Shown here: piece by piece, positions 6,456-44,940 of the stretch
Layout of the letters: every line of letters begins with the position of its first letter
How positions within the stretch are numbered: the first letter of the stretch is position 1
Assembly: GCA_976551045.1 (NCBI GenBank)
Contig: CDPCPM010000137.1
Location: 1,302,001-1,366,000 of the forward strand
DNA from: Glaucostegus cemiculus
Lineage: Eukaryota
Length of the DNA: 64,000 nt
Direction: 5' to 3'
Notes under the pieces: generated by a model
Seen by the model: only the letters and a program-made list of their open reading frames with translations
Told to the model about the DNA's origin: nothing
Databases searched by the model: none
Translations under genes and position numbers: made by a program

Positions 6456-8086
6456 GTAAGTGGCTTTCGGGGAAAGTTTGCCTTGCCCAGACGTGCCAGT
6501 GATTTTCATTGCAAGCTTTGACGGCGTGATTATGTTTTTGTGTTTATAATAACAATGTCTGCTGTGTGATTGGGATGGTTAACTCTTCAACACTATCGAG
6601 CAGTGTTTCGCTTGCCTAATGCTCGCTAGCTGCAAGTGGGGGTGGCGGGGAATGGGGTGGGGAGGGGAGTGTATTCTATCGCAAATGAATGGAAGCATAT
6701 CTGTGCAAATCTAATTGTAAATTCAGCGCTTAAATGTAGCAGGAAAAGTGGATAGACACCTGTGTTGCCGCGTTGCCGAAGAACACAGGAGGGCAAAACA
6801 ATGCTAGCATTTTATATCACAGGAAGGCAAAATGGAGCGAATAAAAGGTGCACCGTGTCGCAGAACCCATTCTGGGCTCAAACTTTACCAGGTGTTATAG
6901 TTTATAGAGTATACTGGAACGGATCAATCTCAAGCAGAATAAAGTAGGAATAGCTGGCGGGATCCCTTTGGTCACTTTAGCCTTTCTGAAAAATATAATG
7001 TTTGTGGGGTAGCAAGTGATCGCGAAAGGCTGCTGCTTTCCCCGGTGATCCGGTTCGGGTGCTGCCGAACCGCCTAACTCGAGAATGGAGACTCGGCTCC
7101 AACGTAGGACAATGGGACGGCTGGGGTTTACACGATCGCCGGTGCCACAGTTCAATCAGTATGTGCAGATGAGAACCTTCTGCCACTCACATCTAACCCG
7201 ACTGTTTCCCGCTTTAATCAGGGGGTTCACCGATGAACCTCCAGTAACACAGGCTTCCGAACACGGGAGCATAAACTATATGCATAAGGAAAGGTTAAAG
7301 GGGGAGCGAATGGGTGAAACAAGTGCCACCAGAGTTCCTCCAGCATTTTGTGTGTTGCTCCACAACTGCTGCAGTACAGTCCAGTATCATTCCAATCAAT
7401 CCACAAGCTAAATTTGTTTTACATTCAATACGTTGATAGGTACACAGGTACGTTTTAACGTTTTATTTGAATCGTGCTGCGTCTTGATGCACAGGTTACT
7501 TTCAACCACGTTGCATGCTTGATGCTCAGTGAGCTGCAGAACTTGCCCTTCAGTGTAATGTATTGTTTAAGGATGTATATTTCTATATATTTTTCGTACA
7601 AGGTTTCCATAATCTCGGTAATTGTGTTGGTTCGCCTTTTGCTTCACAGTGCGGACAGAGTTACCATTCCTAAAATGAATGGAGGCTCCAAACTACTAGA
7701 GTCCATCAACTGACCCTTCAATTGCAAATTCTCAGAACATGGTCAGATAGATCCCAACAAACACAACAGCGGGAATAAGGGGCGACCATAGTTAGAAAAG
7801 AGGATTTGAAAGTCAATAATAATGCTGTTCAAAATTACATTGTCTAATTCTTGTGATGTCCAACTTTGATCGCCTTCAGGCAAAGTTAAGAAAGTGCTTT
7901 CTAAATCTACCTGAACCTATGAAAATGAGAAAAAAATCTATTAAAATGGCATTGTGCAAGTTACCGGGAAAAACTCCGAGGATTTTGAAGGGCTCTGTTG
8001 TATTTCTGGTGTGAAATACGTGTTTGAAGTTAATAAATATCTGTCGTGTTGCTTTCTCATCCAATGTGTGCCTATATTTGCCACAG

Positions 8087-8313
8087 CGGATTCTCATCGG
8101 TGGTGGCGCTGGGAGCGAACATAATCTGCAGCAAGATTCCGGGACTGGCGCCCCGTCAGCGGGCGATCTGTCAGAGCCGCCCCGATGCCATTATCGTCAT
8201 CGGAGAAGGGGCTCAGATGGGAATCAACGAGTGTCAATTCCAGTTCCGATACGGTCGGTGGAACTGCTCTGCACTCGGCGAAAGAACTGTCTTTGGCAAG
8301 GAGCTCAGAGTGG
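8087..8313 (+). CDS. WNT7A: Wnt7a coding exon 2
   Basis: Acceptor ttgccacag| ending 8086; [36 protein letters not shown]...[19 protein letters not shown]; 227 nt; donor TGG|GTACGT. Confidence 0.98.
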
Positions 8314-10282
8314 GTACGTTAGTTAATGTAAAATCAGCTATCGGTTCCAATCTGTCACTATCTGATATAAGACCATTGGCATGTAAATATAACCTTGTGC
8401 CAAATATACAGGCAAAATTCCTTAAAAATAGCTATACAAGCTCGAATCTTTGGTTAATTTTAATACCTGGAATGGGTTGAATGAAAGAATCCCAATCTAA
8501 AATCAGAAAAAGGAAAATGTGAAATACACTTAGGACTTTGAGCAAAACATCATAATTCTGGTTTATTACAATTTTAAACAAGCCTGGGCCCACAGATCTT
8601 GTGGTTGTCGCTGTAACAGTCAATATTTGTTCAAGAGGCCATCAGAGAAATTGGCAAAATGGCAACTTGTCTTGGTTCTGTTTTAATTAAAGAATCATAT
8701 ATAATGTTAATAACGTAGCTTGTACAGTTCTTTCATCTGTGGGGATCCAAGATTTGCATATTTTGCATTTCTCTGAATCAAAACAATCAAGAGGTTATTT
8801 CCACTTTACTTCCCACAGGTGTACATCTTTTCTATTGTAGTTAAGTTGCTTTGATGGTTCATAAACAGTGCCTCTCTCTTCAGTCACTTTAACCAAGTTC
8901 ATTCAAACAGTAGTCCTACTCTCCTACCCTTGGCTGTGATTCAACAGGACTCGCTTGTTTCTTGGTTACAGCACACACAGGTTATCAGTCATTTTAGTCT
9001 GGGCAGTTTATTAAAATCATTGTCAAACTTCAGAGTTCTCCACAGGTACAGAATAGTTGTTCTTTGAAACACCTGGTGATTATTGACTTTTAGGTGCATA
9101 AGGCACTGAACTTATCAAATTTGACTTCAAAGAAGTTAAGGTATAACATTTGCTACTGTCCTTAACCTATTTAACTGAGCAAGTCATCATCCATTATGAA
9201 TCATACAGCCATTGTTTCAGTATGCATGGCTTATCTTGCATTTTAACCATGCCAAATAAAGAGTGCAATTGTAAATCACATGTTTGGTTTCTATATATCT
9301 ATTTTATACCCCCACAGTTTATGTTTCTGTATAAATATTTCTAATCTCATTGGCACAGACTCAAGCAGCACAGCAGCAAACTATTATTTCTCATAGTTAT
9401 TTTCTACTAAAGATGAAATTCATTCAGAATGTAAAAAGGGGAGTGGCATGAACAACAACATAACAGAGAAACATTTTCCAATTATTCAAATCATGGGCCA
9501 TTATGCAATACTAACTGCAGAGGTTATTGCTCTGGGGAAGACTGAGGTGGCTTCCCCCAGCTTCCTCCTAAATCTGCAAATATTCTGTCATCTGTGACAT
9601 TCCTCCTAGAGTTCACGCCTTTTGAATTTTATTCAGATGTGAAATATTCAGTTAAAATACACTTAATGCACAATCACTGTAATTTCACAATTGTGGCTAA
9701 GAAGTCAACTGACAACAATCGAGGCCACACCTTGGCATTTAGTACTTTATTGAGGAATGTGTAACCCATTTAATGTGCTAAGCATACTAGTATATAGAAA
9801 AAAGACCTTTACAAAAGGAAGTCACAATAAATGGAAGAAACCATCTTTGACAGAGAAATATATGTCAAAGATAGCCTATCAAATTGGATGTATGTTCTGT
9901 GCCTGATGACATACTGGAACAGGCAATAACCATAAAGCTTAGGCAAAAAGTAATCCTGAATCCATTTTTTAAACATGAAATTAATGTCAGTTTCTTGATA
10001 CCATTTGCTGCTGGCATAATTAAAGTTGTTTAATTCCTTTATTTGATAAATGCAAAATTGTTATGCATTATGCACATTATCACATAATTCATTATGTCAG
10101 TTTGGATTTGGCAGACATCAAGCAAACTGTGATTTTAATTTGATATATTTATGGAGATTTAACGATTTCACCTCTGCCAAGTATTATTTTATAGAGTAAA
10201 ACTTAGCACAATACCTCAATGTGTGTCTGATTGTAAAACATAAAATGATATTATTATCACTGGTCTATCAGCATATTAATAA

Positions 10283-10657
<375 letters not shown>

Positions 10658-25819: not shown

Positions 25820-26465
25820 TTGTTGAAGGAATATATGCACCTCAAACTTGTGCAGGACCTACATTGAGGTGAACTTTCCATAATCCATACCTGGCTTCTA
25901 AATGGAACCACTTATTGCAAAATATGATTAAGGTTTGTATACCGCCATTGGGAAAAAAAACTACTGGCTAATCAAAGCCAAAATTCAAACAAGCCGGTTC
26001 CTAATTCACCATGTAAATATGTTTATTTTCATCTTGGGGCGTATGCCTAGCAATGGTTTGATTTAGTCATTCATTTTTATCCTGGATGGAACAAAGGCAT
26101 TAAGCACCAACATTGCCACAAAACTAACTGAAATGCTAGAAACTGCACTAAAATTGTTAATAGATAAATAACTATTGCCCAGATACTTTCACTACTAGTC
26201 TGTTTGTAAATGTTAATGCTGTCATCCTGAATTTTGACAGCAACTCAGCATTTGTAAAACTTGAGTCATTGAAGATCGATTGATTCTGGTGTCTAGTTTT
26301 CTGTAACGTATTGACCTATACCACTTACATAATCTCATCACCGTTCCAGCCAGAGTCTTATATAATAGGTACATTTAAGATTCTTATAAATTGGAGCAAG
26401 TGCAAAAAATAGCTGATATTTTTATTGTGGGTTTGGTCATATATATTGCATTTCCTTCATTCCAG

Positions 26466-26945
26466 ATCCTTGGAGAGAATATGAAATTGGAATGCAAATG
26501 CCATGGGGTGTCTGGATCTTGCACCACTAAAACATGTTGGACAATGCTTCCCAAGTTCAGAGAACTGGGCTACATATTGAAAGAGAAGTACAATGAAGCA
26601 GTTCAGGTTGAACCAGTAAGGACGCACCGAAACAAGCGGCCAGTCTTCTTGAAGATTAAAAAGCCACTTTCATATCGGAAACCTATGGTTACAGACTTGG
26701 TGTATATTGAGAAATCTCCTAACTACTGCGAAGAAGATCCAATCACTGGAAGTGTTGGCACACAAGGGAGAATGTGTAACAAGACATCTTCGCAAAATAA
26801 CAGTTGCGACTTGATGTGCTGTGGACGAGGATACAATACTCATCAGTATTCCAGAGTCTGGCAGTGCAATTGCAAATTCCACTGGTGCTGCTATGTTAAA
26901 TGCAACACCTGCAGTGAAAGAACAGAAGTTTATACATGTAAATGA
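26466..26945 (+). CDS. WNT7A: Wnt7a coding exon 4 (to stop)
   Basis: Acceptor ccttcattccag|; [19 protein letters not shown] (lipidated Ser206 at 26511-26513)...[19 protein letters not shown]...[14 protein letters not shown]; 480 nt. Exons total 1050 nt = 349 aa plus stop. [14 protein letters not shown] and IKQNARTL match Wnt7a rather than Wnt7b. Confidence 0.98.
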
Positions 26946-35250: not shown

Positions 35251-35994
35251 CTTCACCACAGACGACAGTCTCCTTTTCAAAGATTTTTACCCTTTAGAAA
35301 TTTAAAGCCCTTTGGGCTCAACTTCTATAGAGGTTCTCCCAGTTATCAGCAGTAATTCAGCAAAACATCTATGGAAAACTGAAAGTGGCAGCAGGTGATT
35401 GGGGAAAATCCTCAAAGAAACTTGTCAAATAAATCTAACTGATTAGAATGGGAGGTCTGAGGGAAGTCCCCTCATTACGTAGCTTATGCTTTTGGATATT
35501 CTCTCACAACGTAATGAACCAAGGTGGGGGTACCTTAGTACCAGGTATAGTGCACACAGTCGCAATTGAATAAATTTCAAAACCTACAAGTCACTGTTAA
35601 GTGAATGCACATCATAGTGGGTGACTAATAAATGAAGGTGACTAAAAGAAACCTGTCTTGCTCCGTCTTGAATACAGGGAGTGAAGTGATGCCAAAGACA
35701 AGTGCTATTTTAAAATTGTTTAATTATATTCTCCCCTTTTTTTAAATTATCCCTTTTCAGTTTATTTGCATCATCTATGTTTCTTCTGTTGTCGTCAACC
35801 TGAAACATTAATTTGATGTCTCTCCATGGATGCTATCTGACTTGCTGAGTGGTTCCAGCACTTTTGTTTTTATTGGTGAAGTTGTGATCCCTCTGTCCTT
35901 ACCCTTCAGGGTAGTATTAAAGAAGTCCTGACAAGTTGTTGTAGTTCATTTTGCAAAAGGTCCATACCACAGCTACTGTGCATTTTCCTATCTT

Positions 35995-36032
35995 CAGTTC
36001 TGAAGAAGGGTCCTGACCCGAAACATTGACCG
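35995..36032 (+). ncRNA. Minimal type I hammerhead ribozyme motif, copy A (degenerate)
   Basis: cagtt CTGAAGA a gggt-cctg-accc GAAA ca TT gaccg: core CUGANGA 36000-36006, stem II 36008-36019, GAAA 36020-36023, NUH-like site ending 36027. Confidence 0.6.
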
Positions 36033-36374
36033 CCTGCTTTTCTCCACGGATGTTGCCTGACCTGCTGAGTTCCTCCAGCATCATCATGTAACCCCACCCC
36101 CTTTCCCCACAAACCCCCCACCCCCATCATGCTTCTTCTCTTCTTCCCTTTCCCAGCCTCTTCTTTTTAAACCTTTTTTCCCCCTCTCTCTCATTACCTT
36201 TGACCCATCCCATAGTGGATCTGCTCTCCCCTCCTCCCCTGCACCTGCCTATCACTATCTCTTAACTGCATCTACCTATCACCACCCTGTGCCCACCCTG
36301 CCTCCCCCCTTTTGTCCATCTATTACTTCTCTGCTTTTCCCTCCTATATATTGGTCTTCCCCTTTTCCTATCTT

Positions 36375-36412
36375 CAGTCCTGAAGAAGGGTCCTGACCCA
36401 AAACATTGACCG
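36375..36412 (+). ncRNA. Minimal type I hammerhead ribozyme motif, copy B (GAAA mutated to AAAA)
   Basis: cagtc CTGAAGA a gggt-cctg-accc AAAA ca TT gaccg; stem I cagtc/gaccg has 4 of 5 pairs. Confidence 0.5.
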
Positions 36413-37163
36413 CCTGCTTTTCTCCATGGATGCTGCCCGGCCTGCTGAGTTCCTCCAGCATCATCGTGTTTCTCATCTATATTCCAGCATCTGCAGTCCT
36501 TTGTTTCTCACTGTGCATTGTCTACCTGAATCAGTGGTGAAGGAACGAGTGTTTGCTTAAGGTAGTGAATCATGTGCAAATCAATTGGTTTGCTCTGTCG
36601 CAGATTTTGAGCTTTTTGAGTATTGCTGGAATTGCACATCAAAGCAAGAAGAGTGTTCAATCACGGGATATCTCAGTGACAATATCCCACTTCATTATTT
36701 CCACAACCGTGAATTGACTGCTTTTGGATTGAAATCAAAAGATAATAAAGTTTATCAGGTTAACAAACGCAAATTCACCATAAATATGGCAGCAAATCTC
36801 AGAAGAAATTTTGAAAAATAATTGGATTGGAAGTCAGGAGGCACATCAGTTAAGACAGTGAAGCTTCCAACGTTGCAGCATCAAGATCACCTCTTTCATG
36901 CACTGCTGACATAAAAATTGATGCCTATCTAGAAAGGCCTATTCTGCCCACATGAGGATAAAAACTGAAGGACTGTGGTACCCAAACACAGTTACCTAGT
37001 TCCTGTTTCTAGCTGAGGCTTGTTTTAAGGAACTCATGAGAGTAGTGTATCCAACTTGCCAAAGTCTATGCATGGATTACTTACTCTGTCAAGGTGGGAG
37101 GGTAGCTATGGAGAACAGAACTACATTAAAGCTTGATCATTGATGATCATGAACATTGATTGA

Positions 37164-42880: not shown

Positions 42881-44751
42881 TCTCATCTTCATCGCGTGCA
42901 GGATGCCTCCAGCTCAACCAGCACCTTAATGATTCTTAGTCTTAGGCAGAAACAGTTTTTGCAGCTATGAACATTTGTGACAACGTCATTATCCACAATG
43001 TACAACCATGCGTCATTATCATTTGTTCTTGATTAATTACTGCTTGGCTATCTGCAACTTATTTCTTGAACACTGATCACTTGAGTTCTAGATTTATTTG
43101 AATGGGTTAAATTATCTTGATGTGAAATAAACTGATCATTAACTGTGTTTAATTATATGGTTATTTATTTGTTATTAGCGTGTGTACAGACAGTTAAATT
43201 GGATTGATTCTCGTGTTTTCCAAGGAAAGCTGACCTGCTACTTGGGAAAAGGGGTGGTTATAAGGGACCATAGACCATAAGACATAGGAGCAGAATTAGG
43301 CCATTCAGCCCTTAAGCTTTAAAGCAGGAGAGAAAGGCAGAGAATTTAGGGAAAGAACTTCAGACAGGGGGGGCCCCAGTATCTTTCAGGATACCATTTC
43401 CAATTCTGGTATGGGGAAAGGACACCAAATCAGGGCCATGGAAAGTTTGATTCAAGTTGTAAAGATGGATCATATTACAGGTATAGTAAGCAGAAGATCA
43501 TGAAAGGATTTTTACATTAAAATCATTTTACATTAAAATCAGGGCTTTAAATTTGAGGCACCTTGGGATTGGAAGCTAGTTCAAATGGAACTAGAAACCA
43601 AGAGAGGTTAGCCAGCCTTGGGTGAATAGAACAGGCAGAGCACAGAAAGCCTCAACATTCATAACCATACCCATATTCATTTGATCCCAGGATCCTGCCA
43701 AGAGTTGGGCCTGCATTGAGGTATAAGTTGGTTAAACTAAAGGCCTGGCTTGCCAGATACAACTTAAGAGGCTTGAGAACCTGAACAACCAGAGCATACT
43801 TCCACAGATATCTTGTACCTAGTTAAGAAAGAGAAGAAATATATGGGGTCAATGCTGTACTGATGAGAGTGTTCAGAAATAGCAGAAGCCCAAGGAGTCT
43901 GAGTCGGAGCAGTGAGAGTGAAGGGGGGTTGGCTTGTCTTCTTTCAGGAGAACAAAGCACGTTATAATGTACATGAGCCATAGTCTGTGGTATAGTGAAC
44001 GTGTGGAAGACTCAGCTGCATGGGTTGAGGCCTGGGTGGGGCAAGGGAAAGGGTGAGTTGAGAGGGGGTTCTTGGAAAGAAGAAAAAAGGGTAGGGGATT
44101 CAATAGTTCGGAGAATAGACAGGAGTTTCTGTGACAACAGATGTGACCAGAATGCTAAGATGTATTCCTGGTTCTAGGGCCATTCACTGAACAACTGCAG
44201 GGCATTCTGAAAGGGGAGGGTGAAGTTCCAAAGGCTGTGGTTGACATTTGTATCAATGACAGAGGGAGAAAATGAATACTGTACTGCAGACAAAGCTTAG
44301 GAAGCAAGAAAAGAAGCTAAAACAAAAATCAGGATGTTTAAAGGAAAAAGACTCTGGATTACTGCTATTGCCATTGGCTGGTGAATACTAAAGTAGGATG
44401 AAAGGGAAGAAAAATGTATGCCTGGAGAGCAGACATAGAAGAGAATGCTTTGGGTCGCTGAGGATCTTCTGGGGGAGGTGGGACAGCATACGAGCAAGGT
44501 TTGCATCGCAACAGGAACAGGGAGCCCAAGGGTAGAAACGGAAAGGAGAAAAACTAAAATGGGAGATAGAAAATATCAAAGAGAAAAGAGAATGCACTAG
44601 TGCAGGACAATGACAGAGGTAATGATAACCAATGTTTTAGGAAGGGGCAATCGAGTACAAGGGCACATTAAGAAATAGTAGGGGAAGATGATGAGGTAAA
44701 ATTAAATTTATCTGAGTGCACTTGGTATTCAGAACATGATAGATACATTGA

Positions 44752-44940
44752 AAAAACAATGAGATGCTGGAGGAACTCAGCAGATCAGGCAGCAGGACTT
44801 TCCTGAAGAAGGGTCTTGACCCGAAACATTGACCATCTGTTTTTCTCTTCGGATGCTGCCTGGCCTTCTGAGTTCTTACAGTATCTTGTTGTTTTTTTCC
44901 ATCTAGATTCCAGCATCTGCTGTTCTTTGTTTCATGTAAC
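44752..44940 (+). mobile_element. Penelope-type fold-back mini-insertion with hammerhead core
   Basis: 11-bp TSD agatacattga (44741-44751, 44941-44951); inverted partial repeat gatgctggaggaactcagcagatcaggcagca, then CTGAAGA (44803-44809) a gggtcttgaccc GAAA (44823-44826) catt gacc. Confidence 0.75.

Follow-up and report, generated by a model that had tools for sequence, protein, structure and literature searches.

The window, the whole stretch of 64,000 nucleotides that was analysed, comes from a genome of 2.85 Gb. Coding exons of a Wnt-family gene lie on its forward strand at 8037-8477, 10283-10657 and 26379-26942, and an insertion of 525 bases lies about 9 kb past the last of them on the same strand; nothing ties the two together. 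The insertion is flanked by a 10-nt target site duplication (TSD), ACTGTGCATT, at 35975-35984 and 36510-36519 (+ strand), which was read directly and recovered by a repeat search of the window that extended it to 13 nt with one mismatch. Two direct repeats of 107 nt each, 93% alike and offset by 380 nt, occupy 35983-36089 (arm A, +) and 36363-36469 (arm B, +), and the TT that closes the left TSD doubles as the first two bases of arm A. The 273-nt spacer between the arms (36090-36362, +) is 79% pyrimidine. No recognisable protein was found in six frames over the 525 bases, in which the stop-free stretches have no Pfam match. Arm B is followed by 40 nt (36470-36509, +) that are missing from arm A and include an optional tail of about 30 nt. 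A preliminary description had reported the 10-bp TSD, two repeats of about 100 bp at an offset of 380, a pyrimidine-rich spacer and no meaningful ORF, all of which were found again.

Each arm contains a minimal type I hammerhead motif on the forward strand, motif A at 35995-36032 (core 36000-36027) and motif B at 36375-36412 (core 36380-36407). Both consist of CTGAAGA, an unpaired A, a GGGT/ACCC stem II, (G/A)AAA, ACATT and a CAGT(C/T)/GACCG stem I, and every element that had been named earlier could be read at both sites. Hammerhead position 17 is 36027 in motif A and 36407 in motif B, which places the predicted cuts after the bases where cleavage had been proposed. Damage to the two copies had also been described, and both ACAT for ACGT and AAAA in motif B are real and correspond to CpG decay. 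In motif A, G16.2 (36025) is changed to A and one base of stem I (35999) is altered; in motif B, G12 (36400) and G16.2 (36405) are both A. G12 has a catalytic role in the hammerhead. On sequence grounds, both window hammerheads are predicted to be dead, with G12 lost in motif B and the self-complementary AACGUU lost in both. This palindrome is needed for the dimer helix in the dimer model, as given in the accessible text of PMC4209133. Rfam returned no hammerhead match on the window or on an intact family copy, and is uninformative for the minimal motif because the intact copy was also unmatched.

Judged by its sequence, the insertion derives from an abundant Penelope-like element (PLE) of Neptune type, of which it comprises the 3' UTR, pseudo-LTR (pLTR) and tail. 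The 15-nt hammerhead core has 7,719 exact occurrences genome-wide and a 32-nt version has 2,702. A search with the element gave 6,298 candidates; among the best 40 scored, every other top match starts at query position 111-142 and reaches the 3' end. Upstream of that point, other family copies extend for variable lengths into coding sequence, in which translations give DKG, an RT core, a thumb, a CX4CxxC linker and then GIY-YIG/CCHH (L005, L010, L102, L103, L086, L098 and L111; all copies broken). The RT core includes a YIDD motif. The Penelope origin that had been proposed is borne out, and RT and GIY-YIG sequence lies upstream in the family. Pfam matches on the parent were weak and below cut-off (RVT_1, E 0.042; GIY-YIG, E 0.023), in two of five fragments. 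The translated IYCIxCSKCGLLYIGET places two cysteines between GIY and YIG, with histidines further on, and a zinc-finger-like linker, CPCHRCNTC, lies between RT and EN in L086, L074 and L103. A CCHH motif and a CX2-5CxxC linker define EN+ Neptune-type elements, and Penelope and Poseidon are without the linker, in the part of PMC8557442 that was available. By these definitions the parent is an EN+ PLE of Neptune type, an assignment made on motifs; Nematis, too, has a linker motif. The spacer at the locus is accordingly the pyrimidine-rich 3' UTR of this parent, beginning at its stop codon, rather than a retrozyme spacer; arm B is the pLTR in its native place, and arm A is a second, tail-less pLTR piece.

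Longer copies give the natural layout of the family. An upstream, direct-order pLTR that includes the tail and leads on into a putative ORF start was found in L117, L141 and L149, three of the 38 longest copies fetched from 436 candidates; the 38 include six of one segmental duplicate. L149 is a full pLTR-ORF-pLTR unit with hammerhead cores 3,455 nt apart, and the natural hammerhead-to-hammerhead unit of the family is about 3.45 kb. Pairs of PLE hammerheads about 3 kb apart, as in the family unit here, are described in the accessible part of PMC4209133. Six near-identical stretches of 7.5 kb with a copy of the element (L126, L130, L138, L143, L144 and L147, on C108 and C590 of G000) represent a segmental duplication or a tandem cluster. 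The 3' part is common to a sibling family that differs in its stem II and has a GUC cut site; loose ends of this family fall at window position 36422, and it is commoner in the RNA of a relative.

The majority sequence of 99 family copies that were not picked by their cores is an intact minimal hammerhead, with CUGAAGA, an extra A, GGGU/ACCC, GAAA, the palindromic AACGUU and a 3-bp stem I. The expectation of an intact consensus behind damaged copies was therefore correct. The average divergence of the copies from the majority is 6.6%, CpG sites are changed in about 20-35% of copies, and every core position is kept in 27 of the 99. Divergence at non-CpG sites is 3.6% in the core and 4.5% outside it, with no clear selection on inserted copies. 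A hammerhead descriptor gave 89 matches in 1.06 Mb of fetched loci and none in shuffles, a comparison that is circular, the loci having been picked by motif, and that shows no covariation.

Arm A differs from the majority at five positions and arm B at four. Seven of the eight changed sites are private to one arm, and the sole shared one is the CpG change at G16.2, which is present in 29 of the 99 copies. The arms have aged apart since insertion, because the sole shared change is at a CpG site. Contigs from DNA-like runs of three relatives stop 25-28 nt inside the tail at the orthologous right flank, where minus-strand ends were interpreted, and one 172-nt contig crosses the left junction; the flanks differ by about 4-9%. 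None of the relatives' contigs listed crosses the junction between A and B, and no empty site was found among the joints listed. We take the insertion to be older than the splits from these three relatives, which appear to share the site. We therefore read it as old and doubled on landing, since the arms share one CpG change and three relatives appear to share the site.

Family ends were determined at 89 loci, a sample drawn from the first 100 cores in the list, on the contigs that head it, and selected for cores that look intact; 88 loci could be mapped. Of these, 56 are solo, 30 have an inverted second arm and two have a further direct arm, 0.8-0.9 kb downstream with no ORF-start sequence linking the arms. 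At the 89th locus (L154), a 40-nt stretch with the hammerhead core is duplicated in tandem (L154 1501-1572) beside an inverted arm. The 3' ends form two groups, with 46 of 88 at the base equivalent to 36506-36509 and 37 about 23-40 nt earlier (~36473-36481); five are shorter still. An optional tail of 30-40 nt is known for PLE insertions from the available portions of PMC8557442 and PMC3846280, and two internal RT start sites in the Anolis element, in the part of PMC11167929 at hand, fit two groups of 3' ends. One tailed and one tail-less arm make up 26 of the 30 inverted pairs; arms B and A do likewise, but in direct order. Arm A ends at reference position 1531, and tail-less second arms end in the range 1512-1543. 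Of 83 family copies, 23 have TSD-like repeats of 8-19 nt on either side, as does 1 of the 81 shifted controls. The window TSD is beyond chance, because it starts where 46 of 88 family copies end and because the family has an excess of TSDs over controls.

The 5' ends of mapped copies are scattered over more than 1.4 kb. The preliminary description had set a 380-nt family against ordinary debris, meaning ends of an autonomous element truncated to varying lengths, and the latter is what we found. There is a pile-up of 5' ends at the front edge of the hammerhead, reference 1435-1442 (window 36373-36380), with 22 ends in 8 nt, partly forced by core-based picking; it includes the more-than-unit copies L149 and L211, and it may mark the transcript start. 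In L154, L155, L068, L170 and L032, the 5' end of the inverted second arm lies at the AACGTT palindrome or the predicted cut, a weak excess. A group of five second-arm 5' ends at reference 1465-1470 (cut 1469/1470) was considered as a sign of cleavage in vivo and set aside as weak, as four of them extend 3-5 nt past the cut into AACGTT.

The preliminary description had proposed a non-autonomous retrozyme family, in which dimeric hammerheads release a 380-nt monomer that is circularised and re-inserted. Two direct-order hammerhead motifs with a TSD agree with such a family, as do the intact majority with its palindromic AACGTT and the report of PLE-derived retrozymes with a mean unit of 363 bp in one chondrichthyan (in the accessible text of bioRxiv 10.64898/2026.07.22.740005). 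Against the proposal, the junction and the two-core spacing of 365-395 nt were found at this locus alone. The junction (36088-36091, +) is a 2-nt overlap (GT) that the end of arm A shares with the stop-codon region of the parent ORF (TAA 36089-36091). With a 91-nt junction query, all 39 other scored matches, the best of 327 candidates, cover one side only, and a genome-wide pattern search for the junction returned the window as its sole match. Among the 7,719 exact cores, direct pairs at a gap of 350-380 occur once, at the window, and inverted pairs at nine loci; direct pairs occur once at a gap of 255-285 (L211) and not at all at 200-230, these searches covering exact matches in three 31-nt windows, which diverged or otherwise spaced tandems may escape. 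The genome thus gave no sign of a family of 380-nt units in the junction and spacing searches. TRF found no array at the locus, and the insertion amounts to 1.28 units. The insertion includes 40 nt (36470-36509) that lie outside the interval between the cut sites. A 380-nt circle therefore could not have served as template for the insertion, and it would also be missing both 3' ends of the family. The circular monomer folds at -30.6 kcal/mol, against -29.1 +/- 3.5 for 100 shuffles (z -0.4), with 28% of bases paired; retrozyme circles are highly self-paired in the part of PMC7229834 available. The RNA of another species, from three runs of one study of which 18-24% each was read, is weak evidence: read ends do not accumulate at 36407, and none of the 15 joints listed, 40 more being outside the listing, is a back-joint of 380 nt. 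Taken together, we consider a retrozyme family very improbable.

Two further alternatives were weighed. In one, a full-length pLTR-ORF-pLTR copy landed and a microhomology-mediated DNA deletion of about 3.07 kb, from the upstream pLTR to the stop codon, then left a remnant that is just as one-off and inert. The same sequence, the TSD and independent divergence of the arms are all expected from this, more-than-unit copies exist (L117, L141 and L149), forward skips were seen 18 times in 192 loci, and similar deletions are reported for rotifer Penelopes in the available part of PMC3846280. Copies with an upstream pLTR are rare, however (3 of the 38 longest, from 436 candidates, compared with 6,298 for the 3' end), so scarce that they cannot supply the five of 89 loci in which ORF-start sequence is joined to a pLTR; the breakpoint at 1531 also falls within the 1512-1543 end range of tail-less second arms. 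A later deletion is on this showing unlikely, while retaining more weight than the other alternative, that arm B was later duplicated locally, at the DNA level, to give arm A. The change of G16.2 to A common to both arms would suit a duplication, but it is at a CpG hot spot, the remaining seven of eight changed sites are private to one arm, and arm A sits exactly within the left TSD, all of which makes a local duplication scarcely credible.

The likely explanation, in our judgement, is that the 525 bases are a single old 3'-end insertion of a Neptune-type element whose second hammerhead arose by an RT jump during the same insertion. The GIY-YIG endonuclease would have nicked the target with a stagger of about 10 nt, giving rise to the TSD. 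Reverse transcription would have started at the end of the tail (36509) and proceeded past the hammerhead and along the 3' UTR until, after 420 nt, it reached the stop codon, where the RT would have jumped over the 2-nt GT overlap to the 5'-region pLTR of the same or a second element RNA. The landing point would lie about 10 nt inside the second, tail-less end of the family, and a further 107 nt would have been copied before TT served to join the new arm A to the target. Afterwards the insertion would have decayed neutrally; no progeny was detected. We infer the jump from the layout of the locus and the family, and a later deletion in a full-length copy yields an identical sequence. ORF-start sequence is joined straight to a pLTR in five of the 89 core-picked loci (L063, L160, L162, L178 and L210), skipping at least 3 kb, and in L160 and L162 TSDs enclose the whole unit. 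In these five loci and L211, landings lie 201 to 531 nt past the hammerhead front, all different, compared with 91 at the window locus.

A second direct two-core locus, L211 (1495-1905; G000:C45:11785556-11785859), has cores 289 nt apart. Its pLTR begins at the hammerhead front, includes the tail and extends about 118 nt into the ORF start, where a jump leads to the 3' pLTR. A monomer of this locus would retain the tail and the RT start region, and its second core is damaged by a deletion. It is conceivable, although we think it somewhat unlikely, that the window locus is a stillborn proto-retrozyme. RT back-jumps, at about 1 in 20 insertions, might occasionally make a two-hammerhead non-coding unit in one step, able to cut as a dimer when new; units in which the tail and the RT start site stay between the two cuts, such as L211, could be recopied and found retrozyme families, and units without them, such as the one described here, would die. 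If true, this would offer a concrete birth mechanism for animal non-LTR retrozymes.

The closest published parallels are insertions of EN+ PLEs of the Neptune clade. In the available portions of PMC8557442 and PMC3846280, these share with the insertion the 5' truncation, the hammerhead pLTR, a tail (about 30 nt) that only one arm carries, a variable TSD of about 10 bp, partial tandems and inverted second arms, and with the parent the CX2-5CxxC linker and CCHH GIY-YIG. All of pLTRs, partial tandems, inverted arms, the optional 30-40 nt tail and TSDs are present in the parent family. The insertion differs in that its tail-less arm is in direct order and no ORF remnant is present, a rare layout in the family (one locus, versus nine inverted, at 365-395 nt). 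With the minimal hammerheads of PLEs, the family has in common the CUGANGA/GAAA/NUH core, an extra base between 9 and 10.1, the G10.1-C11.1 pair, a palindromic 15.2-16.2, a short stem I and no helix III of its own; in contrast, its stem II has only 4 bp, the two window copies lack some core bases, and any self-cleavage by the family is putative.

A Poseidon element of Anolis (PAc; Frangieh et al. 2024, PMC11167929) is described, in the accessible part of that paper, with two fixed 3' ends, which lie past the hammerhead at a distance of about 30 nt from each other and match two internal RT start sites, and with the next ORF beginning after the tail, as here. It belongs to another clade, and its start codon is at stem II, whereas the putative start codon here is about 36 nt past the tail and is placed from sequence. 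Non-LTR retrozymes, as far as the available text of PMC7229834 and bioRxiv 10.64898/2026.07.22.740005 goes, are also non-coding, with direct-repeat type I hammerheads at a few hundred nt, a TSD longer than 4 bp and an origin in PLE pLTRs. The lack of coding capacity and the TSD of more than 4 bp at the insertion are equally true of any PLE stub. The insertion has no monomer fixed at many loci, no multimers or two or more consecutive units with complete hammerheads, no two complete cores and no self-paired circle, and its hammerhead is minimal, not canonical. A rule of two complete units is stated in the accessible part of bioRxiv 10.64898/2026.07.22.740005, with cleavage in one of nine frog dimers. 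Our literature search, which covered openly accessible papers, found no published work naming the family.

The window element is an ordinary truncated PLE insertion, retrozyme-like in layout only. As one dead copy among thousands, it is of little import itself, and it cautions that two hammerheads within one TSD do not prove a retrozyme family. It is also a fossil of PLE insertion, a process that is still poorly understood. The two start sites, the pairs of tailed and tail-less arms and the frequent 5' back-jumps can be counted genome-wide in this family, and an in vitro system exists for the Anolis element.

Among the indexed data sets that contain the stretch, none was recorded as RNA. The family is covered in both orientations in the relative's RNA, which we read as read-through of many genomic copies. 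One joint in these reads, from 36468 back to 36186, was supported by nine reads in one run and one in another, in both orientations; it is probably another direct tandem in the relative's genome, with an arm that ends where arm A ends. Two other PLE remnants lie in the window. An older, diverged Penelope-type end fragment of another family (35798-35871), 69-75% identical to the arms, is 100 nt 5' of the insertion. The other, at 44749-44933, is an inverted pair that belongs to the same family or a close one and consists of a short, tail-less minus-strand arm and a tailed arm that starts at the hammerhead front.
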